Of a DNA stretch of 64,000 bases, positions 4,060 through 64,000 are shown piece by piece. Location of the stretch: positions 72,508 to 136,507 of the forward strand of contig CAWIED010000004.1 in assembly GCA_963835085.1 (NCBI GenBank), read 5' to 3'. Under the pieces are notes generated by a model. It was not told the origin of the DNA and did no database searches. It worked only from the letters and a program-made list of their open reading frames with translations. The first letter of the stretch is position 1. The number at the start of each line of letters is the position of its first letter. The translations under genes were made by a program, and so were the position numbers. Source of the DNA: an uncultured Actinomycetota bacterium. GTDB taxonomy: Bacteria; Actinomycetota; Actinomycetes; Actinomycetales; CAWJMD01.

Positions 4060-6110
4060 AGCTGCACCGGATCACGCTGACGAACTTTCGCCAGTTCAAG
4101 GGCGAGCAGCCTTTCGACCTGCGGTCGGACACGCTAATGCCAGTTACGCTGCTCTTCGGTGCCAACGGTGCGGGAAAGACGACACTCCTCAACGCTTTTA
4201 CCTGGGCGCTCTACGGCTCGCTGTCTGATGATCTCGAGCAGCAGGAGCGCCTCGTCACCGACAGTGTCTGGCGAGCAACTGCCGCGGGTGGCTCGGCAAG
4301 TGCCAGCGTGGAGCTGGTCTTCGATCACGAGGGTCAGGGCTACCGTCTACGCCGGCGGATTACGCTCCGCAAGGAGGGTGACCACCAGGCGAAGGCAGCA
4401 CCCGAAGTGCAGTTGTGGATGACCTCGTCGGACGGCTCTTCCGAGATTGTGGGAGCGCCTCAGGAGAAGATCCAGTCGATCCTGCCTCGCAGTATCAGCC
4501 GCTTCTTCTTCTTCAACGGGGAGCGTATTGAGAAGCTCGTTGAGAAGAGCGCGTATAGCGAGGTTCAACAGGACATCAAAGTGCTACTGGATCTGGAACA
4601 GGTCGAGCGAGCGCTTGCCCACCTTCCAAAGGTGGATCGGAAACTAACGGCGGATATCCGTAAGCATGGCGGGGACAAAGCCAGCGATATCCAGAACGCG
4701 ATCGACCAACTTGGCGAACGTGAGTCAAGCTTCCGCGATGAGCAGAAGATCCTTGAGGGTGACCTTGCGACCCTGAACAAGGAGCGCGAGGAGGTCACCG
4801 AGTTGCTGCGGCAACATGACGCTGCAGCTCCCATACAGGCGCAGAGGGATTCCGTCACCCGGCAACTCGAGGAGACGCGGATTGGACTCGACACTGCGGT
4901 GAAGGAGCGTGCGAACCTCATCGCAACACGGGGATTTCTGGCATTCACCGAGGAGCTCGGCGACGCAACCGGTTCGATGGCCGAGCAGCTGTACGAACGG
5001 GGTGCCCTGCCGGCTCCTCTCAAGCGTGAGTTCGTCGACCAGTTACTCGATGAGGGCATCTGCATTTGCGGTACGGGTTTGGCGGAGCACAGCGAGCCAT
5101 GGAAGCACGTAACGGAATGGCGTCAGCGAGCTGGACTGCAGGCGGTCGAGACCGCGTGGCAAAAGCTGAGCGGTCAGATCGAGCCGATGGCGGCGGCGCG
5201 GAGCGACCTGCGAGAGGCTCTCGGACGGATTGTGAAGCGGATCGGCGATCTTCGCGACAGCATCGCCGAACTGGAGGAGACGAAGTCCGAGCTCGATGGC
5301 AAGCTGCGCGACAGCCGGCTGGAGGATGTTCAGGCGCTGGAGTCGAAGCGGATCGACCTCGACAACCGACACGGCGAGAAGCAGCGCCGGATCGGTGCGG
5401 TAGCAAGTGATCTCCAGCGGATTGCAAAGGACATCCAGCACAAGGTCCAGGAACTCAAGAACGCAGAGGTGACTGACGAACTGGCCGCCAAGGCGCGAGC
5501 GCGCTCGGACATGGTCAGGAACGTCAAGCGTGCGCTCGAAGAAATCTTGGAGATCCGTTCAGAGCGGATGCGTCAGCGCCTCGACGCCGAACTCAAGTCG
5601 ATCTACAGGAGTATCACGTACAAGAACTACGTCCCGGCGCTCAGCGAGTCGTTTGAGCTGACCCTGCATACCAATGTGGACGGCGTGCTACTGCCCGTCG
5701 GCAAGTCCACCGGCGAGAACCAAATCCTCAGTCTGAGCTTCGTCGCCGCAGTCTCCAAGCTTGCTCGTGAGATCCGCAAGGAGCGCCGGGCGGAGGGCGA
5801 GTCCGCCGAGGACGCAGGCACCTACCCCATCGTGATGGATGCCGCGTTCGGGTCGCTCGACGAGAACTACCAGGAGTCCGTAGCGCGCGTGCTCGCTCGG
5901 ATGGCTCCCCAGTTGGTAGTGCTGGTGAGCAAGAGCCAGGGACTCGGAAAGGTGGTCGCCGAACTGGGCCCGTACGTCAGCCACCTTGGGGTCATTGAGG
6001 TCCACAGCAGCCTGACAGGTGCCGATGAAGACATTGAGTTGCGCGGACATGGCTATCCATACATCCGCCACGCCGAGACCGACTACGCCCTGCTTAAGGA
6101 GATTCAGTGA
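4056..6110 (+). CDS. SMC/ABC-type ATPase, DndD-like paralogue (684 aa)
   Basis: N-terminus MKLHRITLTNFRQFKG...LLFGANGAGKTTLLNAFTWALYG (Walker A). Long coiled-coil-like E/L/R-rich middle region. C-terminal signature-like STGENQILSL and Walker B/D-loop YPIVMDAAFGSLD. Same layout as DndD at 10569. Confidence 0.85.
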   Translation: MKLHRITLTNFRQFKGEQPFDLRSDTLMPVTLLFGANGAGKTTLLNAFTWALYGSLSDDLEQQERLVTDSVWRATAAGGSASASVELVFDHEGQGYRLRRRITLRKEGDHQAKAAPEVQLWMTSSDGSSEIVGAPQEKIQSILPRSISRFFFFNGERIEKLVEKSAYSEVQQDIKVLLDLEQVERALAHLPKVDRKLTADIRKHGGDKASDIQNAIDQLGERESSFRDEQKILEGDLATLNKEREEVTELLRQHDAAAPIQAQRDSVTRQLEETRIGLDTAVKERANLIATRGFLAFTEELGDATGSMAEQLYERGALPAPLKREFVDQLLDEGICICGTGLAEHSEPWKHVTEWRQRAGLQAVETAWQKLSGQIEPMAAARSDLREALGRIVKRIGDLRDSIAELEETKSELDGKLRDSRLEDVQALESKRIDLDNRHGEKQRRIGAVASDLQRIAKDIQHKVQELKNAEVTDELAAKARARSDMVRNVKRALEEILEIRSERMRQRLDAELKSIYRSITYKNYVPALSESFELTLHTNVDGVLLPVGKSTGENQILSLSFVAAVSKLAREIRKERRAEGESAEDAGTYPIVMDAAFGSLDENYQESVARVLARMAPQLVVLVSKSQGLGKVVAELGPYVSHLGVIEVHSSLTGADEDIELRGHGYPYIRHAETDYALLKEIQ

Positions 6111-17057: not shown

Positions 17058-17627
17058 GGATGTTCTCCCTCACCGCGATCTTCGCTGCATCCGGAACGTT
17101 ATCTCAGCGGGCTCTTCTTGCACTTACTGCATCATCGTGAAGTCTGCCGTAGCGGCCTGCGGAGCCTACTCCGAGTACGTTCAGACCTCCTGGATCGGGA
17201 GGACAGAGAGGTTTGACGTCATCGACGGCGTCCACGCCCACCCTGAAGGGCTCTCAACCGAGAGCCGCAAACCCGGTATGGGGGCGCGCCAGAGCACCCG
17301 GGTCGCTTCAGCTTGTGAACCCTGACCGGACCGGGCGGCGCCTGCGCCTGCTGCCGTAAGTGCCCTCGTGGTGGGTGGTCCTCGTGCTCGATCGGGGTGA
17401 TCATCTCGAGCTGCCCAGGACGGTCGTTTATCCTGGCATTCTGCGACGATGCGTGGTCAGAGTTGGACGTCTCAGCCGAGTTGAGGCGACGTGGCCGCTG
17501 ATGCGTGCGATCGCTCGCAGTCTTGCGGGCCCGTTCGAGGTAGTGGTTTCGGCTCATTCACGGTTCAGTCGGCGTCGAATAGACCATCGTCGCAGGTCGG
17601 CGAGTCGGCGGGGACGCTCTGTAAATC

Positions 17628-17727
17628 CGTCGGCTTAGCCTACGTTGGTTCGAATCCAACAGCTGCTACCAGCAGGAAACGAGGCCCTGACCAGCGGAAA
17701 CGCCGGTCAGGGCCTCGATCTATGTGT
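17628..17727 (+). repeat. Direct repeat copy 1: tRNA 3'-fragment (variable-arm-like hairpin, T-arm GTTGGTTCGAATCCAAC, acceptor strand AGCTGCT-A-CCA) plus a GC-rich GAAA-loop hairpin; att-like
   Basis: By manual alignment it matches 27225-27323 with 3 substitutions and 1 single-nt indel. No 5' acceptor strand or anticodon arm could be found upstream. Confidence 0.7.
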
Positions 17728-18043
17728 CCGGGCGGTGTCGGTGGGAAGCGGCCGTCTACGGGTGTCTGCGGATGAGGGGTGGATGAGTTTTGGGGTTTGC
17801 ATCGCCGCTCCGCTTGCTCCCGAACCGTGTGGCACGGCACCGATGCTGCCGCTGTGTCGCTCAATGGCCTAAGCGTCGAGGGTGCCCGACGGCCTCGGTG
17901 CGGTCCAAGGTCAAGCCAATGATCGCCTCGTCGTAGTTGCACGGAACCGCGCGGTGGTGAATGGCCTGAGTGGCCTTACGCACCTGTCGTGCCGCCGCAG
18001 CCTAGGGCGCACCTGGCTCGCGCAGCCGGCCTCGTGAGCCTCA

Positions 18044-22082: not shown

Positions 22083-22212
22083 ACTCCCCTCTCAGCCGTA
22101 TCCCCCGAGCACGTCGACGGGGAGCATGGGCAAGGGGCCGACCTCTCGGTGAGGTCGGCCCCTTCGTCGTGCTCGTCGAGCTGGGGTTCACATAGCAGCG
22201 GAGCGGATCTGG
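22033..22212 (+). repeat. Inverted repeat, left copy (about 180 bp; contains the gene 3' end plus a perfect 14-bp-stem hairpin at 22132-22164)
   Basis: The reverse complement of 26934-27111 matches with one substitution and one 2-nt indel by manual alignment. Confidence 0.8.
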
Positions 22213-26933: not shown

Positions 26934-27111
26934 CCAGATCCGCTCCGCTGCTATGAACCCCAGCTCGACGAGCACGACGAAGGGGCCGACCTCACCGAGA
27001 GGTCGGCCCCTTGCCCATGCTCCCCGTCGACGTGTTCGGGGGATACGGCTGAGAGGGGAGTTCAGCCGTCGCGCACGTCCGGGAACAGGTCTTTGGGAGA
27101 TGCTTCGTAGG
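26934..27111 (-). repeat. Inverted repeat, right copy (hairpin at 26980-27012)
   Basis: Reverse complement of 22033-22212 (one substitution, one 2-nt indel). Confidence 0.8.
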
Positions 27112-27224
27112 TGGTCAGACATGATCACCCAAGTCAGCTTGGACTGTGGCCAGCTGAGCCACTGCCTCACGGGTATGCGGAAAGGTCCTCGCGCTCAGTA
27201 AGCCGAACTGGCGGTCTGTAGGTT

Positions 27225-27323
27225 CGTCGGCTTGGCCTACGTTGGTTCGAATCCAACAGCTGCTACCAGCAGGAACCGAGGCCCTGACCGGCGGAAACGC
27301 GGTCAGGGCCTCGATCTATGTGT
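27225..27323 (+). repeat. Direct repeat copy 2: tRNA 3'-fragment plus hairpin (att-like)
   Basis: Same sequence as 17628-17727: T-arm GTTGGTTCGAATCCAAC, AGCTGCTACCA, then GGCCCTGACCGGCG-gaaa-CGCGGTCAGGGCC. Confidence 0.7.
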
Positions 27324-27629
27324 TGGCTGTGCGGCGGGTGCGCTCGGCGCCGCGTGGGCGAAGATCGCCGATACCTGACGTGAGAACGCAGTTCGTGCCG
27401 CGCGCGTGAAGGTGGACGTGTGCCGAGACTGATCCAAATCGGAGTCCTCCGGGCGGGTGAGGAAGGAGCCGCCGCCGGGTGTTTCAACTCGCGGTTCCGG
27501 GGTACACCCGAGCGGACTGTCCGGGCACCGCAGCAGCATCAACCAGGGCGTCAACAGCTTCGCTGCTGACGCGGTGGTCAGTGTCCGGTCGACAGTCGAT
27601 TGGAGTCGGCGAACGTGAGGGAGACCGAG

Positions 27630-28085: not shown

Positions 28086-29267
28086 CTACGAACGCACCAT
28101 CATGGCGTCTCGAACGCTGAAGGTGGCTCCCTCGAGGTCTGCGGCGTCGGTGACGAAGGTGAAGGCATCGTCGTGCACCGTGGCGCCGGGCTGCACCGGG
28201 CCGGTGCTCACGGAGTCCGAGTCGACCTCTTGCCCGCTCTTGGTGGCGATGACCGTGAGCAAGAACGAGGCCGGGAATGATGACTTGTTCGTGAGCGTGA
28301 CCGGAACCTTGGTGTCGGGGAAGCTGGAGTCACCGGTGATGACGGGCGTGCCGAAGGTGACCGTCAAGTCGTTGGCCATGATGCTGTCGACATCGGTGGT
28401 CAGCCCCGAGTCGTTGGAGACGGAGGGCCTCGACTCGCGTGAGGTGGACGGCATTGCGTCCGATGTGGAGATCCAGTAGACGGTGCCGACGAACACCACA
28501 ATCGAGACGATGATGGCCAGCGCCGAGGTGGCGATGCCGCCGATTGCCAGACCCCGACCGGCCGCAAGGCCCTTTCTGATCTGAACCAACGCGACGATGC
28601 CCATGATGAGGCCGACCAGGGCGATGAAGGCGAAGACCAGGCCGATGATGGGGATCCAGCCGAGCATCAGCCCCACGACGCCGAGCACCAGACTCAGGAT
28701 CGCCAGCACCTTGCTCGGCCCGGCAGGTGTGTACATGCCGTACGCCTGAGGGTTGGTGTACATGGCCGATTGGGCGCCAGGCTGCTGGTAGTTGGCGTCG
28801 GGTGGTTGGTAGCCGGCCTGCGGATTGCCGGCCGGGCCGTAGCCGGCTTGCTGATATTCCGGCTGCTGGAAACCCGGCGGTGGGTATCCCGGTTGCTGGA
28901 AGCCTGATGGCCCGTAACCCGGCTGCTCGTAGGTCGGCTGCTCGTAGGTCGGTGGTCCGAAGCCTGGCTGCTCGTAAGTCGGTTGCCCGTACCCGGGCTG
29001 TCCGTACCCGGGTTGCCCAAAGCCGGGTTGCCCAAAGCCGGGTTGCCCGGACCCGGGTTGCCCAAAGCCGGGTTGCCCAAAGCCGGGTTGCGCGAAGCCC
29101 GGTTGCCCGGAGCCGGGCTGCTGATCTGCAGGCCGGTACGTCTCGGGCTCGGTGTAGCCCGGCCCCGGAGCCTGCTGCTGAGGGCCACCTGCTGCGAACG
29201 GGTTCGGATCGCCGTCGGGGGAGTTGTGCTTGGTCAGATCGGGGCGCTGCGGCGTGGAGTCGCTCAT
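28086..29267 (-). CDS. Membrane protein with a Pro/Gln/Gly-rich repeat N-terminal region, two or more TM helices and a DUF4352-like extracytoplasmic domain
   Basis: Start at the ATG at 29267 (MSDSTPQRPDL...) with GGGAAAG upstream. Repeats QPGFGQPGFGQPGSGQPG... TM region VLAILSLVLGVVGLMLGWIPIIGLVFAFIALVGLIMGIVALV. Confidence 0.8.
   Translation of the reverse strand: MSDSTPQRPDLTKHNSPDGDPNPFAAGGPQQQAPGPGYTEPETYRPADQQPGSGQPGFAQPGFGQPGFGQPGSGQPGFGQPGFGQPGYGQPGYGQPTYEQPGFGPPTYEQPTYEQPGYGPSGFQQPGYPPPGFQQPEYQQAGYGPAGNPQAGYQPPDANYQQPGAQSAMYTNPQAYGMYTPAGPSKVLAILSLVLGVVGLMLGWIPIIGLVFAFIALVGLIMGIVALVQIRKGLAAGRGLAIGGIATSALAIIVSIVVFVGTVYWISTSDAMPSTSRESRPSVSNDSGLTTDVDSIMANDLTVTFGTPVITGDSSFPDTKVPVTLTNKSSFPASFLLTVIATKSGQEVDSDSVSTGPVQPGATVHDDAFTFVTDAADLEGATFSVRDAMMVRS
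28981..29115. repeat. 15-bp tandem repeat (9 units) encoding the (Q/E)PG(F/Y/S)G pentapeptide array
   Basis: Units GGTTGCCCAAAGCCG and variants run head to tail from 28981 to 29115. Confidence 0.8.
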
Positions 29268-42301: not shown

Positions 42302-43270
42302 TCAGGGCTCTCGACGCGAACCCGGGCTTGACGCAGCGGGCCGACGCCGGACCAGCACCAAAGCTGCCAACAGTCCTCCCAGCAGGCCGCCGAGGTGGCC
42401 CTGCCAGGAGATGTTCGGGCCGAGGAACGTGAAGGCGACGTTGATGCCGAGCCAGGCGAGCACCCCGCGCATATCGCCACCCAGTCGCCACACGACCACC
42501 AGCAGCGCTCCCAGCAGGCCGAAGATGGCTCCCGAGGCACCCAGGGTCAGTGTCTGCGGTGCACTCATCGCGTACACGAACCCTGAGGCGGTCAAGCCTG
42601 AGAACAGATAGATCGCGAGGTAGCGGCTTGCCCTTACGACGCGGCACAGCTGTGGCCCCAGGAAGAACAGCGCCAGCATGTTCATTCCGAGGTGCATGAG
42701 ATCCACGTGTGTGAAGACGTTGGTGATCACCTGCCAGTAGGCGCCGTCCGCCACTCCCGCAGACCAGGTTCCGAACGCGGCGCAGGTCTGCCGGCCGATC
42801 TGGGGGTAGATCGCGTCCGGCTGCGAAAGGGGAACGCACACCCCATGCGGACGCAAGCCGAGCCGGTCGGTCCACAGACTTGCCTGGCCGCCGGTGGCCG
42901 TGATCAGCAGCCAAACGGCCACGTTGAGCGCGATCAAGACGGCCGTGTATCTGTCGGGACGGGCACTGGCTCTCTGCGCTGCAGGCCTCCCGGCGTGGGG
43001 CTGGTGGGTCGAGGTCTGCGCCGGTTGCGGCTGGCCTGGTTGTAGCCGGCCTGGTTGTAGCTGGCCTGGTTGTAGCTGGCCCGGTTGCAGCCGGCCTGGT
43101 TGTAGCCGGTCCGGTTCCGGCTTGGGTGAACGCCAGCGCTCGGGCAGGTGGCCGGGCCCCTGCTGGCCGGGTTCGTCACTCACGCTGACCTGCTTCCATC
43201 CGCCACCTGAGCCCCCAGCATAGATTCGCCGCGGCAACCGAACCCGGGCGAACGCCGGCACTGTGATCAT
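42302..43270 (-). CDS. Rhomboid-family intramembrane serine protease with an N-terminal Q/P/G repeat region
   Basis: HLGMNMLALFFLG and catalytic GASGAIFGLLGA motifs. Start uncertain (an internal GTG giving MSDEPGQQ is possible). Confidence 0.82.
   Translation of the reverse strand: MITVPAFARVRLPRRIYAGGSGGGWKQVSVSDEPGQQGPGHLPERWRSPKPEPDRLQPGRLQPGQLQPGQLQPGRLQPGQPQPAQTSTHQPHAGRPAAQRASARPDRYTAVLIALNVAVWLLITATGGQASLWTDRLGLRPHGVCVPLSQPDAIYPQIGRQTCAAFGTWSAGVADGAYWQVITNVFTHVDLMHLGMNMLALFFLGPQLCRVVRASRYLAIYLFSGLTASGFVYAMSAPQTLTLGASGAIFGLLGALLVVVWRLGGDMRGVLAWLGINVAFTFLGPNISWQGHLGGLLGGLLAALVLVRRRPAASSPGSRREP
43021..43125. repeat. 15-bp tandem repeat (about 7 units) encoding the (Q/R)LQPG array of the rhomboid N-terminus
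   Basis: CTGGTTGTAGCTGGC and variants run head to tail. Confidence 0.75.
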
Positions 43271-45808: not shown

Positions 45809-45842
45809 GAAAGGCGGGACGGTCACGACCGTCCCGCCTTTC
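45809..45842 (+). terminator. Hairpin terminator after rplL
   Basis: GAAAGGCGGGACGGT-cacg-ACCGTCCCGCCTTTC (15-bp stem), 22 nt after the rplL stop. Confidence 0.7.
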
Positions 45843-45865
45843 GTGTCCCCAGGGGCCAAGACCAC

Positions 45866-46200
45866 TGCCGTTCGGTTAGTCGTCTGGTGGGTGTCGAATT
45901 CTGTGTGGAGTGTCGCGGGCAGTTCAGCGGCGCGCGGCAGCGGAGCAGAGCAGGGCGACAGTGGACGGAGCCGGGCGATGGGAAGCGCCAGCCTGCCCGG
46001 GTCTTCCGCAAAGGGCGGTTTCGACAGTCGCAGGCCAGGGTTTTTCTGCGCTATGGCGATGCCCCGTCCGGCGGGGCATTGTCATAGCGTCAGAAACCGG
46101 CCCCCGTTCACAGCCCGGCAGTGCCGGACCCGACACATCACGATCCGGGGGCCGGGGGGTGCCGTCCGCGGTGTATTCGCCGCGGTTGGCCGGGCTAGGC
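45866..46200. repeat. Intergenic repeat-family copy A (single unit; imperfect long palindrome at 46050-46088)
   Basis: Shares conserved blocks with 60729-61130: TGCCGTTCGGTTAGTCGTC, GGAGCCGGGCGATGGGA, CTGCCCGGGTCTTCCGCAA, GGTTTCGACAGTCGC, TGCGCTATGnCGATGCCCCGTCCGGCGGGGCAT, CCGTTCACAGCCC, GGTGCCGTnCGCGGTGTATTCGCCGCGGTTGG. Confidence 0.75.
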
Positions 46201-46292
46201 GTCCTAGGTTGATGATCGCATCAGGAGTCCCCATCGCCCAGGTCCGTGAGAGGCCGTGGATGGAGATCCCAGGCATCAGCCGGGCAAGGCCA

Positions 46293-47504
46293 TCAGTCGA
46301 CGTCAGCGCGCCACAGGTCGGGACCGAAGACCTCGTACTGGATGTCGGAGGCCGACACGCCCTGGTCGATCAGCTGCGAGCGCACCGCCTGCATGAACGG
46401 CACCGGCCCGCACAGGTAATACGAGGCGCCCTCGGGCAGGTCGAGCACGGAGACGTCCATCAGGCCCGCGTGCACGCAGCCGGCACCGGTGGCGCCGTCC
46501 TCGTTCTCGTAGAACACGTGCAGGCTCGCGTTGGGCAGTGCCACGACGTCGGACTCGATCTGCGACCGCAGGGCGAACGAGGCCTCGTCGGCGTCGGCGT
46601 GCAGCACCAGGACGGGCAGGTCCGAGTCGGCCTTCACCAGATGGCTCAGCATGCCGGCGGTGGTCGTGACCCCGATGCCCGCGGTGCAGAACACGACGGG
46701 CTGGCCACTGTCGTCGAGCACGATGGCTCCGAACGGTGGCGAGGTCACCAGCGCGTCACCCACCTGCACGGAGTCGTGCAGGAGATTGGAGACCTCGCCG
46801 GCCGGGTGAGCATCCACCGGGCTCACCCGCTTGACCGCGAACGCGCGAGTGCGGCCGTCGTCGGCGCGGGTGAGCGAGAACTGCCGGGGTTGCTTGGTGC
46901 CGTCCGGCAGTTCCATCTGCAGGGTGACGTACTGGCCGGGCAGCGACGACTTGACGATGCGGTCGTCCATCCGGCCCACCACGAACTCCACTACGTCTGG
47001 GCTCACCTGGTTCTTCTCCAGCACCTTCCAGGGGCGCCAGATCCGGTCGGGGGTCACCCCGTGGGCGCTGTAGATGCCGCGTTCCATGTTGATGAGCTCG
47101 TTGGCCATCAACCAGAAGACCTCGTCCCACGCGGCGGCCACGTCCGGCGTGACGGCCTCGCCCAGCACGTCGACGATGGCCCAGAACAGGTTCTCGTGCA
47201 CGATCGGGTACTGCTCGGGTCGAATGCCGAGTGACGTGTGCTTGTGAGCCACCCGGCTCATCATCGCGAGCGGGGTCTGGCCGGGGTGCTCCACCAGCCA
47301 GGTGGCGTAGATGGCCACCGAGCCGGCCAGCGACTGCTGCTGCTCGCCGGAAGACTGGTTGCCCCGGTTGAACACCCCTTGGGTCAACAGCTCGGGATGG
47401 GCCGAGAACATGTGGCCGTAGAAGCGACCTGCGATCTCGCCGATGTTCTCGCCCACGACGGGCAGGGTCGCCTCGATGACGGGGCGTGCGGTGTCGGACA
47501 GCAT
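46293..47504 (-). CDS. hmp: Flavohaemoglobin (NO dioxygenase)
   Basis: Globin N-terminus MLSDTARPVIEATLPVVGENIGEIAGRFYGHMFSAHPELL. FAD/NAD reductase half with RQFSLT and YYLCGPVPFMQAV. ATG at 47504 with GGAGAA upstream. Confidence 0.88.
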   Translation of the reverse strand: MLSDTARPVIEATLPVVGENIGEIAGRFYGHMFSAHPELLTQGVFNRGNQSSGEQQQSLAGSVAIYATWLVEHPGQTPLAMMSRVAHKHTSLGIRPEQYPIVHENLFWAIVDVLGEAVTPDVAAAWDEVFWLMANELINMERGIYSAHGVTPDRIWRPWKVLEKNQVSPDVVEFVVGRMDDRIVKSSLPGQYVTLQMELPDGTKQPRQFSLTRADDGRTRAFAVKRVSPVDAHPAGEVSNLLHDSVQVGDALVTSPPFGAIVLDDSGQPVVFCTAGIGVTTTAGMLSHLVKADSDLPVLVLHADADEASFALRSQIESDVVALPNASLHVFYENEDGATGAGCVHAGLMDVSVLDLPEGASYYLCGPVPFMQAVRSQLIDQGVSASDIQYEVFGPDLWRADVD

Positions 47505-55575: not shown

Positions 55576-55920
55576 ATGACCAGTCAGCCCGACCTGCAGC
55601 GCAAGGTGCGCCAACTCGACAACGACGTCTCGGCGATCTACGACCTGATCTTCAAGATCCAGAACACCCAGATCCGGCACGGCAATCGCCTTGATGAGAT
55701 CGTGACCGACCTGGCGGCCCACGACGCCAGGTTCGACCGTCTCGACCAGCGGTTGGACGGAGTGGAGCAGCGTTTGGACGGGGTGGAGCAGCGGCTGGAG
55801 GGGCTGGAGCAGCGTTTGGACGGGGTGGAGCAGCGGCTGGAGGGGCTGGAGCATACGATGGTCGACCAGTTCGGCCGGGTGCTGCGCTTGTTGGGCGACG
55901 ACACGGAGGGCTCCCGCTAG
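55576..55920 (+). CDS. Small coiled-coil protein with heptad (21-bp) repeats
   Basis: 114-aa ORF. ...RFDRLDQRLDGVEQRLDGVEQRLEGLEQRLDGVEQRLEGLEH... 21-bp DNA repeat units run about 55744-55852. Confidence 0.55.
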   Translation: MTSQPDLQRKVRQLDNDVSAIYDLIFKIQNTQIRHGNRLDEIVTDLAAHDARFDRLDQRLDGVEQRLDGVEQRLEGLEQRLDGVEQRLEGLEHTMVDQFGRVLRLLGDDTEGSR

Positions 55921-60585: not shown

Positions 60586-60604
60586 GCTGACGCTCTCGCA
60601 TAGA

Positions 60605-60640
60605 GCGACCCCGAACCCACTGCGGTTCGGGGTCGCTTTT
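60605..60640 (+). terminator. Intrinsic terminator after tuf
   Basis: GCGACCCCGAAC-ccactgcg-GTTCGGGGTCGC followed by TTTT. Confidence 0.8.
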
Positions 60641-60728
60641 GTCGTCTCTGGACCTCCGGGTGATCTATTCCGCGGGGGCAGGCGGCGTGCTGATGAGGAT
60701 GTCAGGACTAGATCCGGGCTAGACGCAA

Positions 60729-61410
60729 TGCCGTTCGGTTAGTCGTCCGGTGTGGGTGTCAAGGTCTGTCCAGCCAGCCGGCGACAGATGGGGCCAGCCC
60801 GCTGACGGGCCCGGCAGGTCAGCGACAGATGGTCAGCTCAGCGACGCGTGGGCAGCCCAGGGGTGGGGCGGAGCCGGGCGATGGGACGGGGCAGTCTGCC
60901 CGGGTCTTCCGCAAGGGGAGGTTTCGACAGTCGCGGGGCAGGGGCTTTCCTGCGCTATGCCGATGCCCCGTCCGGCGGGGCATCGGCATAGCGTGAGAAA
61001 CCGACCCGTTCACAGCCCTCCAGAAGCCGGACTCGACCATCACGGTCCGGAGTCGTTGGGTGGTGCCGTGCGCGGTGTATTCGCCGCGGTTGGCACCGGG
61101 TTGAGTGCCGGGGCTGGGGTTGGGGTCGTTGGGTGGTGCCGTGCGCGGTGTATTCGCCGCGGTTGGCACCGGGTTGAGTGCCGGGGCTGGGGTTGGGGTC
61201 GTTGGGTGGTGCCGTGCGCGGTGTATTCGCCGCGGTTGGCACCGGGTTGAGTGCCGGGGCTGGGGTTGGGGTCGTTGGGTGGTGCCGTGCGCGGTGTATT
61301 CGCCGCGGTTGGCACCGGGTTGAGTGCCGGAGCTCGGGTTGGAGTCGTTGCGTGGTGCCGTTGGCGGTGTATCCGCCGCGGTGGGCACCGGGTCAGGCGT
61401 CTTGGGTGGA
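60729..61410. repeat. Intergenic repeat-family copy B (perfect 17-bp-stem palindrome at 60954-60992, then a 73-bp tandem array)
   Basis: Same conserved blocks as copy A. GCTATGCCGATGCCCCG-tccgg-CGGGGCATCGGCATAGC. Distal module repeated with period 73. Confidence 0.8.
61052..61410. repeat. 73-bp tandem repeat, 4 near-identical units plus 1 degenerate unit
   Basis: GTCGTTGGGTGGTGCCGTGCGCGGTGTATTCGCCGCGGTTGGCACCGGGTTGAGTGCCGGGGCTGGGGTTGGG starts at 61052, 61125, 61198 and 61271. A diverged copy starts at 61344. Confidence 0.85.
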
Positions 61411-62809
61411 AGACCGACTCAGCAACCGGAAAGACTGTGATTCAAGGGTTGCGCCTTCCTCGCCAGACGCAGCTCCGAAAGCCGGGACGACACCCAGCCG
61501 GAACCTTAACCCAACGGCATTGGGGCTTGACCGCCCTTAGGCCGTCGAACTGCGACGTTGTTCGCGAGGGAGCCACCAACTTGGTGACGGATGGGCGAAG
61601 AACGTGACAGGTGGACGCGCGATCGTTCCCGCGGCTGCCCCGACTCATTGGCCCGAACGGGCATTTTGCTACACCCAGACGAGGGCAATCGTCCAGATCA
61701 AGCGATACGTCGCAGGCCAGATTGCTACGTTGCGGGGGTGACGATGACTAAGAGTGAGGGGCGGCCGTCGAGCCTGGCGCGAGTGGCGGCGGTTCTGCTG
61801 ACGGCCCTGTTGTCCCTTGCCGGCTTGGCGGGTCCGGCCATGGCAAGTGATACCGTCGGCGCCCTCCGGGGGACGCTCCTCAACTCCGACGAGACCGTTA
61901 TCGCCTCGGCACAGGTCGCCGTCTATCGCCTGAACGCCTCGACCCCCATCGCCAGCACAGTGACCGACGCCGCCGGCAACTGGTCGGTATCGGTGCCGCT
62001 GGGCACGTACCAGGTTGCCTTCACGTGGGGCGGTCAGACGCAGTGGGCGTTCTCGCGTCCCACCCGCGAGCAGTCGGACTCCTTCGGTGTGTTGCCTGGC
62101 AGCGAGGTGCTGGTCACCAACCATTGGGTGTCGGTGGCGCACGTGGCCGGCACGGTCAGGTCGACGACCGGCGCGACGCTGTCGGGCATCTGCGTCAAGG
62201 CCCTGTCGGCGGTACATCGCGAAGAGGTCATCGCCCAGGGGTGCACCGATGCGAGCGGCCACTACGACCTACCGGTGGGACAACCCGTGGCGGTCGTGGT
62301 GCAGGCGGCCGACCCAACGGGCCGCTATGCCACCCAGTACGCCCCGGGCGTCAACGGCTACAGCGGTGGCACGCGCTACCAGCTCACCGGCGGGCTCACC
62401 ACGACGGTGAATGTGCGGCTGGCCCAGTCGTCGGCGATCACCGGGATAGCCGTGAGCGCAGCGGGCAGGCCTGTGTCGGGTGTCTGCGCCGACGTGTGGA
62501 TCGGCCGCAACGGTGAGAACGTGGTGGGCCAGGTTCCCAGCTGTTCCGGCACCGACGGCCGCTGGCGCGTCTCGACGTTGCCCGCGGGCACCTTCACCGT
62601 GCGGCTCTATCCCAAGGACGGCGCATCGTTCGCGGCCACCTGGCTGGGCGGCCCGCAACGTGGTCTCGCGCAGGTCGTGCGCGTGACGCGGCGCGGATCG
62701 ACCCTCGACTTCGGCCGAGTGCCCGTGCCCGTCAGCGACTCCGGGAAGATCGACCCCACCTATCGCTACCGGTCCTGGATGCCCATAGTCGGCCCCCGCG
62801 CGGGTGCTG

Positions 62810-64000
<1,191 letters not shown>

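Follow-up and report, generated by a model that had tools for sequence, protein, structure and literature searches.

Non-coding repeats downstream of rplL and tuf in an uncultured member of the Actinomycetales are probably MITE-like elements derived from an IS4-family insertion sequence

Introduction

In the genome of an uncultured member of the Actinomycetales related to Actinotalea/Cellulomonas (65% GC; tuf identity of 97% to the nearest relative and 94% to Actinotalea), two repeated segments lie in the same orientation, each downstream of a strong operon: copy A after rplL and copy B after tuf. What kind of element are they, and why are they found past the ends of these genes? A first-pass annotation of the window (the whole stretch of DNA that was analysed, 64,000 nucleotides) left the repeats unclassified, and read them either as a transcribed 3′-UTR element (sRNA, RNA-stability or insulator element) or as a REP/MITE-like selfish repeat that targets terminator-proximal DNA. 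Based on the analysis of their termini, interior, further copies and target sites, A and B are very probably members of a small MITE-like family, non-autonomous and descended from an insertion sequence (IS) of the IS4 family, IS4 subgroup. The second reading was therefore right in kind, the element being MITE-like with IS4-type inverted repeats (IRs) and a target-site duplication (TSD). What had appeared to be an unclassified, terminator-associated repeat family would thus be ordinary IS-derived selfish DNA.

Results

Homology and extent of the two copies

In a MAFFT alignment, the regions of A (45840–46260) and B (60700–61110) showed 79% column identity over approximately 360 aligned nt, with long exact blocks spaced by indels that were not multiples of three. 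With the tandem array of B collapsed to a single module, global alignment gave an identity of 335/408 (82%) to A over 45863 to approximately 46232. These values bear out the earlier description of A and B as homologous non-coding repeats after rplL and tuf, but with altered limits: A had been placed at 45866–46200 and B at 60729–61410, while the homology extends to the ends given in Table 1, the right end of B lying 112 nt farther than proposed. The homology begins exactly at the terminus of an IR, and the flanking DNA is unrelated. Past position 46232, the A–B alignment was no better than that of shuffled sequences, 327 of 500 of which scored at least as high; since A to the right of this position scores like shuffled sequence, A is considered to be a truncated copy without the second IR. 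A candidate right IR and TSD of A (CCCAGGCATCAG / GGGCAAGGCC), plausible by eye, was rejected, its alignment score being no better than that of shuffles.

Table 1. Features of copies A and B and their flanks (coordinates in the window)
Feature	Coordinates	Strand	Evidence or remark
rplL intrinsic terminator (context)	45809..45847	+	15–16-bp G+C hairpin, then UUUCGUGU; −36.8 kcal/mol, z −6.8
Copy A left target flank GGGCCAAGAC	45853..45862	.	NNN-YTAR-NNN with one mismatch
Copy A, non-autonomous IS4-subgroup derivative, right end truncated, ~370 bp	45863..46232	+	82% identical to collapsed B
Copy A terminal IR CACTGCCGTTCGGTTAG	45863..45879	+	One mismatch to the IS consensus; IR scan, alignment to IS termini
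Transposase remnant of copy A, last ~15 codons and stop, frame-shifted	45877..45925	−	Aligns to 3′ ends of the L004, L005 and L003 transposase genes
Copy A central hairpin, two G.U pairs on +	46043..46096	+	RNA fold −42.8 kcal/mol (+), −33.3 kcal/mol (−)
Copy A distal module, single, GGTGCCGTCCGCGGTGTATTCGCCGCGGTTGG core	46154..46190	+	Family D3, 95% identical to B units
tuf intrinsic terminator (context)	60603..60645	+	−33.1 kcal/mol, z about −6.9, U-tail
Copy B left TSD GGGCTAGACG	60716..60725	.	8/10 identical to 61523–61532
Copy B, complete MITE-like element, IR to IR, 797 bp (505 bp array-collapsed)	60726..61522	+
Copy B left terminal IR CAATGCCGTTCGGTTAG	60726..60742	+	No mismatch, corresponds to IRR of the parent IS; IR scan
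Transposase C-terminal codon remnant of copy B (...TLTPTPDD*)	60740..60790	−	Alignment and direct reading
Copy B central hairpin, perfect, ~21 pairs	60946..61000	+	−45.1 kcal/mol, z −8.1
Copy B tandem array of the 73-bp distal module	61049..61413	+	Family D1; four units 98–100% alike, fifth at 86%
IS 5′ untranslated-end remnant of copy B, leader hairpin distal arm CAAGGGTTGCG... up to IR	61441..61505	+	Alignment
Copy B right terminal IR CAATGCCGTTGGGTTAA on − strand	61506..61522	−	Two mismatches, corresponds to IRL of the parent IS; IR scan
Copy B right TSD GGGCTTGACC	61523..61532	.	8/10 versus GGGCTAGACG

Terminal inverted repeats and target duplication

We scanned the whole window for the 17-nt IR with up to three mismatches. 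Exactly three sites were detected, compared with 0.15 expected, and none of 100 shuffled sequences reached three. The first-pass annotation had stated that terminal inverted repeats were absent; on the contrary, the inverted pair CAATGCCGTTCGGTTAG, at 60726–60742 (+) and 61506–61522 (−), bounds B. IS-like termini are thus present at both ends of B (zero and two mismatches) and at the left end of A. The two 10-bp flanks of B form an imperfect TSD, and decay of the TSD with age is expected for MITEs (PMC10969869). For the target flank of A, no right-hand duplicate was recognisable, and A is also without a second IR.

The parent insertion sequence

To trace the origin of the termini, an 18-mer from the conserved start of A and B (GCCGTTCGGTTAGTCGTC) was scanned against one genome per species. 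This search gave eight loci in six actinobacterial genomes (Pseudarthrobacter, Citricoccus, Leekyejoonella, Promicromonospora and two Streptomyces). The 18-mer was preceded by CAAT or CAAC at all eight loci, and at six of them a 455-aa ORF lay next to it on the reverse strand, its end (...PDD*) falling within the 18-mer. This ORF carries the Nterm_IS4 and DDE_Tnp_1 domains (E values of 1e-22 to 1e-27), scores 174.8 bits against the NCBIfam model transpos_IS4_1 (cut-off 115), and in the full-length ISs at loci L004 and L005 contains the YREK motif YHERWEIETAYCELK. The full-length ISs are approximately 1.52 kb long with the termini CAATGCCGTTCGGTTAG...CTAACCGAACGGCATTG; intact 1.52-kb copies with 10-bp target duplications were found in Pseudarthrobacter, Citricoccus, Leekyejoonella and Streptomyces, the TSDs at L004, L005 and L007 being perfect (CCCCTAATGG, CCACTAGGTC and CGCTCAGGCC). 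The signature of the IS4 subgroup comprises a size of 1400–1650 bp, ends of the form -AATR--------WTW and direct repeats of 10–13 bp (Table 1 of De Palmenaer et al. 2008, PMC2266710), and the full-length ISs agree with it in size, end motif and duplication length. These results describe an IS lineage with 100% conserved IRs in the Micrococcales, Streptomyces and relatives.

Both ends of this IS were recognized in the window. The left approximately 60 nt of A and of B align to the IRR end, that is, the IR plus the last transposase codons; the transposase ORFs of L004, L005 and L003 end ...TPDPDD* at the IR. The right approximately 80–85 nt of B align with the IRL-proximal end of the full-length ISs at L004, L005, L007 and L002. 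The earlier statement that no transposase is present therefore holds for the window as a whole, as judged by tblastn, but not for the left approximately 60 nt of A and B, which are a transposase 3′ end with its IR. As in the IS4 subgroup (PMC2266710), the termini of A and B fit the motif -AATR--------WTW (CAATGCCGTTCGGTTAG) and are associated with a 10-bp target duplication, and the related elements of approximately 1.52 kb encode a single-ORF DDE/YREK transposase with Nterm_IS4. In contrast to that subgroup, A and B retain only the last approximately 15 transposase codons, with unrelated non-coding DNA between the ends, and their lengths (approximately 370 bp and 797 bp) fall below the 1400–1650 bp of autonomous members. 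The Y(2)R(3)E(6)K motif was found only in the full-length ISs L004 and L005, and nowhere in the window. The derivation from a known IS family, which had been named beforehand as a finding that would count against a separate repeat family, replaces the label "unclassified".

Two further observations concern the IS itself. The leaders at L002, L005 and L007 (for example, L007 2783–2842) contain a conserved 15–27-nt inverted repeat, GCAGCCCTTG...CAAGGGCTGC, between the IRL and the transposase start codon, which may serve to control translation or transcription as a hairpin; in B, the distal arm alone is preserved (61441–61455). At L001 (5753–5797, Promicromonospora panici), approximately 45 nt of the IS end remain as a solo IR without transposase, a relic resembling copy A.

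A non-coding interior with a hairpin and a 73-bp module

Between the IS-derived ends, the interior of approximately 300–650 nt is non-coding and shows no similarity to a transposase at the DNA or protein level; tblastn of IS4 transposases on the window gave noise only. For the same reason, decayed full-length IS copies in the window were rejected, and no autonomous partner IS was detected within the 64 kb. The ORFs inside the elements have flat GC1/2/3 values of 0.65–0.74, whereas rplL, tuf, hmp and the secreted-protein gene downstream of B have GC2 values of 0.37–0.60 and GC3 values of 0.86–0.94. This difference from the neighbouring genes supports the previous view that no ORF in the elements has coding character.

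The central hairpins of both copies were approximately 8 SD more stable than those of shuffled sequences, and the folds agree with the earlier description of a palindrome that is perfect in B and imperfect in A. The A hairpin differs from that of B at two pairs, both of which are G.U on the + strand, one of them by a double change (C-G to G.U). Relative to B, the + strand RNA of A loses 2 kcal/mol, while the − strand loses about 9.5–11 kcal/mol. The sequence that follows the hairpin is GAGAAACC or CAGAAACC when the + strand is read and CAGGAAAG or CAGAAAAAC when the − strand is read, with no U-tract, and no terminator-like or promoter-like signal was found inside A or B.

The distal module had been described as single in A and amplified in B, and TRF analysis identified the amplified form as an array at 61052–61393 with a period of 73 bp, 4.7 copies and 97% matches. 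This array is a recent expansion through slippage or unequal recombination. The 73-bp module showed no significant excess of fold stability over shuffles (z −1.05 on + and −2.2 on −). With Rfam 15, the whole window gave only tRNAs at the gathering score, and both copies gave only sub-threshold chance hairpin matches at E≤10; the Rfam scan that had been suggested for these repeats thus yielded no RNA family at A or B.

Further copies in a second genome

A protein-database search with the spurious ORF running through B detected P0121, and an exhaustive HMMER search with P0121 detected P0242 and P0243. All three are spurious ORFs that translate the element interior, and all are located on one contig of 3,617,947 bp from another genome. 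P0121 starts at an ATG inside the IR (MPFGWSSGV, from ATGCCGTTCGGTTgG...) and, with frame switches and about two modules, is colinear with B up to its right end; its identity to the B translation is 78%. P0242 and P0243 translate the core, the hairpin and the modules. In P0243, the interior copy is fused in-frame to the first approximately 88 residues of an IS21-family transposase (E = 1.9e-8), indicating a mobile element nested in another IS and mis-called as a single gene. The same interior therefore occurs at unrelated loci (A, B, P0121, P0242 and P0243), giving at least five copies in two genomes: two in the 64-kb window and at least three in the second genome. The objection, foreseen by the first-pass annotation, that A and B might be the only two copies does not apply.

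These copies bear on the reading of A and B as two independently decayed full-length ISs, or as a local segmental duplication of no consequence. Such a reading could draw on the presence of only two copies in the window, both old (18% divergence) and one without an end. Independent decay, however, would not yield the same non-transposase interior in the same order in A, B and three copies elsewhere, and a segmental duplication would carry flanking DNA, whereas the homology starts precisely at the tip of the IR, and the far end of B is formed by the opposite IR followed by a TSD. Since P0121 is only 78% identical to the B translation and the contigs are of unequal length, the copies in the other genome are not A or B themselves. 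At least five copies in two genomes with the same non-IS interior thus exclude independent IS decay and local segmental duplication as we see it, and we regard this reading as extremely unlikely.

Both window copies are old, as indicated by their 18% divergence, the 8/10 match of the B duplication and the loss of the far end of A, and they are probably immobile today. A read-level assembly of the same organism breaks inside the distal module of A, as assemblies tend to do at repeats. Beyond these genomes, the hairpin 22-mer gave no match among viral contigs, the distal 23-mer none among JGI metagenomes, and copy B none by blastn against plasmids and phages. Five matches of a core 19-mer in JGI metagenomes were set aside as bare 19-mer coincidences with dissimilar flanks. 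From the absence of the interior in plasmids, phages, viral contigs and JGI metagenomes, the family appears to be lineage-restricted.

No element was found after tuf in L016–L018, the three nearest relatives for which DNA was available; their similarity to the window is lost approximately 10 nt past the stop codon, a divergence too rapid for an empty site to be reconstructed base by base. In the hmp relative L010, the synteny with rplL is missing. Neither the rplL nor the tuf product had an exact match on record. Several observations were made on these neighbourhoods. At 46293–47504 (−), a flavohemoprotein/NO-dioxygenase gene (hmp; globin, FAD and NAD domains) lies between rplL and rpoB, convergent with rplL; the hmp–rpoB adjacency is kept in L010, a 76%-identical relative, but the rplL side is not. 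In the window, tuf is followed by copy B and the secreted-protein gene (60586–61740), while the relative L018 (5192–5577) has the S10 (rpsJ) operon instead and the closest relative, L016, carries an oppositely oriented esterase gene there. The 3′ flank of tuf is a hotspot of rearrangement in the host lineage. In L017 (3729–5372), the tuf call is a 547-aa protein in which the GTP_EFTU domain is duplicated, probably through chimeric assembly, and the AT-rich segment downstream of it (5373–5790) contains a 14-mer, GGTGTGGGTGTCAA, identical to B 60747–60760, which is either a relic or chance. Downstream of B, a 103-bp tandem repeat (62810–63056; 2.4 copies, 96% matches) shares sequence with the 3′-terminal part of the secreted-protein ORF and extends beyond its stop codon.

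Target sites and placement past gene ends

Both copies lie just downstream of an intrinsic terminator, as had been reported with distances of 24 nt for A and 89 nt for B. In the present analysis, A starts approximately 16–19 nt past the rplL terminator and B approximately 85 nt past the tuf terminator. We compared the ten bases preceding the IR at nine sites: CCC-CTAA-TGG, CCA-CTAG-GTC, CGC-TCAG-GCC, GGG-TTAG-GGC, GGG-CTAG-ACG (B), GGG-CCAA-GAC (A), CGG-ATAA-CCC, GCA-CTAA-CCC and GGG-TTAC-GGG. Five of the nine match NNN-YTAR-NNN exactly and the other four with one mismatch. In the well-annotated, curated interval of the window (39.8–64 kb), the density of YTAR is 0.24 per kb within genes and 4.25 per kb in the remaining sequence, a difference of approximately 18-fold (p~1e-9). 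At L001 and L006 (1221–1323, Pseudarthrobacter), the TAA of the target serves at the same time as the stop codon of the gene upstream. Because YTAR is approximately 18-fold denser outside genes, gene-end placement follows: the YTAR preference, together with selection against insertion into essential operons, is sufficient for it.

IS621 and IS1397 target REP sequences, and an IS family or MITE that in the same way actively seeks terminator or hairpin DNA would also place copies where A and B are found. Both window copies lie within 16–85 nt of a terminator, the L007 TSD lies between the arms of a perfect 8-bp inverted repeat (GCGAACGC/GCGTTCGC), and the L004 target reads CCCC-TAAT-GGGG. Striking target-arm specificity is on record for some IS4-subgroup members (PMC2266710). 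Against this, the terminator distances are unequal (approximately 16 versus 85 nt), the feature common to all nine sites is the YTAR core and not a hairpin, L001 and L006 are inserted at the very stop codon, and the copy of P0243 is found within a transposase gene. Placement at gene ends would be expected from the distribution of YTAR alone, and two cases are no basis for a statistical claim of terminator targeting. Active hairpin targeting is therefore very unlikely, and the positions can be understood without the earlier proposal of terminator-proximal DNA as the target. The YTAR-centred 10-bp target suggests more generally that, in high-GC genomes, insertions of this kind are steered toward stop codons and gene ends.

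Discussion

Comparison with known small mobile elements

MITEs are described as elements of 50–1000 bp, typically under 500 bp, without coding capacity for a transposase (PMC4596501, PMC10969869). A (approximately 370 bp) and B (797 bp, or 505 bp with the array collapsed) fall in this range and encode no transposase, B being large for a MITE. With IS-type terminal inverted repeats (TIRs), a TSD, no transposase, several copies, intergenic location and a stable hairpin, the element is structurally a MITE.

Among known elements, BrickBuilt of Porphyromonas gingivalis (Klein et al. 2015, PMC4596501) comes closest; it is a MITE of an AT-rich host with IS5-family TIRs, a 23-nt unit, 19 copies per genome and measured promoter activity (PMC4596501). 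As in the case of A and B, BrickBuilt has IS-like TIRs, an interior without transposase remnant and an internal minisatellite that varies in copy number, is strictly intergenic and often beside Rho-independent terminators, and has no Rfam match. The elements described here differ in their IS4-subgroup TIRs, 73-bp unit, 65% GC host and lack of a promoter-like signal. Minisatellite growth inside a bacterial MITE would thus have a second example.

Nezha/ISNpu3 and Chunjie (PMC3184786, PMC10969869) resemble A and B in several respects: their TIRs match those of an IS from other species completely or almost completely, they have a TSD and a predicted secondary structure that is stable, they are intergenic, and truncated copies lacking a TIR occur beside complete ones. 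They are, however, 130–235 bp long, AT-rich and present in many copies, and both empty and filled sites have been demonstrated, while the element of the window is larger and GC-rich and its copies are old.

Among other extragenic palindromes found downstream of genes, two classes were considered. REPs are imperfectly palindromic 20–40-nt units of high copy number, without TIRs or TSD, that are mobilised by RAYT (tyrosine) transposases, and SPRITE is a terminator mimic. A and B share with REP/BIME and SPRITE an extragenic location, a palindrome and a position downstream of genes. They differ from REP/BIME in their size of 370–797 bp with IS4-type TIRs and TSD, and from SPRITE in a hairpin that is not followed by a U-tract and hence lacks the form of an intrinsic terminator.

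In the literature searched, no IS4-subgroup-derived MITE from actinobacteria was found. The elements would represent a MITE-like family not described before, with ends of the IS4 subgroup, in uncultured Actinomycetales near Actinotalea/Cellulomonas. They are also a source of assembly breaks and of spurious ORF calls such as P0121, P0242 and P0243 in MAGs.

Possible functions of the interior

The element, or its hairpin and module interior, might have been exapted as a transcribed 3′-UTR element acting as + strand RNA (sRNA, RNA-stability or insulator element). The same orientation of both copies downstream of strong operons and the very stable hairpin (z about −8) would fit such a role, as would the pairing of A, kept on the + strand by two G.U pairs, one via changes on both sides, with the − strand weakened; MITE-derived sRNAs and 3′-UTR MITEs are documented elsewhere (QMITE, PMC10969869). 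Both copies, however, lie behind strong intrinsic terminators, and neither an internal promoter-like site, nor a hairpin with a U-tract, nor an Rfam family was found. The absence of the element after tuf in three relatives argues against a conserved 3′-UTR function, other copies are located elsewhere, one of them inside an IS21 transposase gene, and two substitutions in one sequence pair carry no statistical weight. We therefore consider exaptation very unlikely; the negative results from Rfam, the internal signals and the tuf relatives leave the transcribed 3′-UTR reading of the first-pass annotation without support.

A related proposal regards the non-IS interior (hairpin plus 73-bp module) as functional cargo, either an RNA or a protein-binding module. 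If so, an IS4-type MITE would have spread this cargo to the 3′ ends of highly expressed operons, where it would be kept as a read-through barrier or stability element, and the G.U-preserving changes of the A hairpin would reflect selection on the + strand RNA. We judge this, too, to be highly improbable. Selfish, probably immobile DNA is the best-supported functional reading of A and B. The + strand pairing of the A hairpin, kept via G.U, is a faint hint of constraint on the RNA, which would not be expected from a purely selfish model.

A model for the origin and spread of the elements

For the IS4-subgroup-derived, MITE-like element, the following origin may be proposed on the basis of its structure. 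A progenitor would have kept both IS ends, approximately 60 nt at the IRR and, at the IRL, approximately 80 nt comprising the IR and a portion of the 5′ leader, with the transposase gene replaced by a few hundred nt of non-coding DNA that carried the stable hairpin and the amplification-prone 73-bp module. A related IS4-subgroup transposase, acting in trans, would bind the 17-nt IRs and excise the element. By analogy with the family, the excised element would then be pasted into a 10-bp target with a central YTAR, and the target duplicated. Cut-and-paste transposition is established for IS10, IS50 and IS231. In this genome of 65% GC, TAA and TAG stretches are nearly confined to gene ends and spacers, and insertions into essential operons are lethal, so that surviving copies would be those just past stop codons and terminators. 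Host function has no part in this model.

Other repeats in the window

Two direct repeats of approximately 115 bp (17612–17735 and 27209–27331), approximately 92% identical and 9.6 kb apart, each contain a stretch resembling a tRNA 3′ end (GGTTCGAATCC...GCTACCA), with a G+C hairpin after it. Their appearance is that of the attL/attR sites of an integrated element; ARAGORN and Rfam detected no complete tRNA at either repeat. Within this putative integrated region, a 53-nt segment containing a perfect G+C hairpin (GGGGCCGACCTC...GAGGTCGGCCCC) is present twice, at 22122–22174 and 26970–27022, 4.8 kb apart. Short-period tandem repeats (15, 21, 30 and 45 bp) were observed within long ORFs at 28599–29122, 43001–43120 and 55732–55857, and these probably code for low-complexity, repetitive protein segments.
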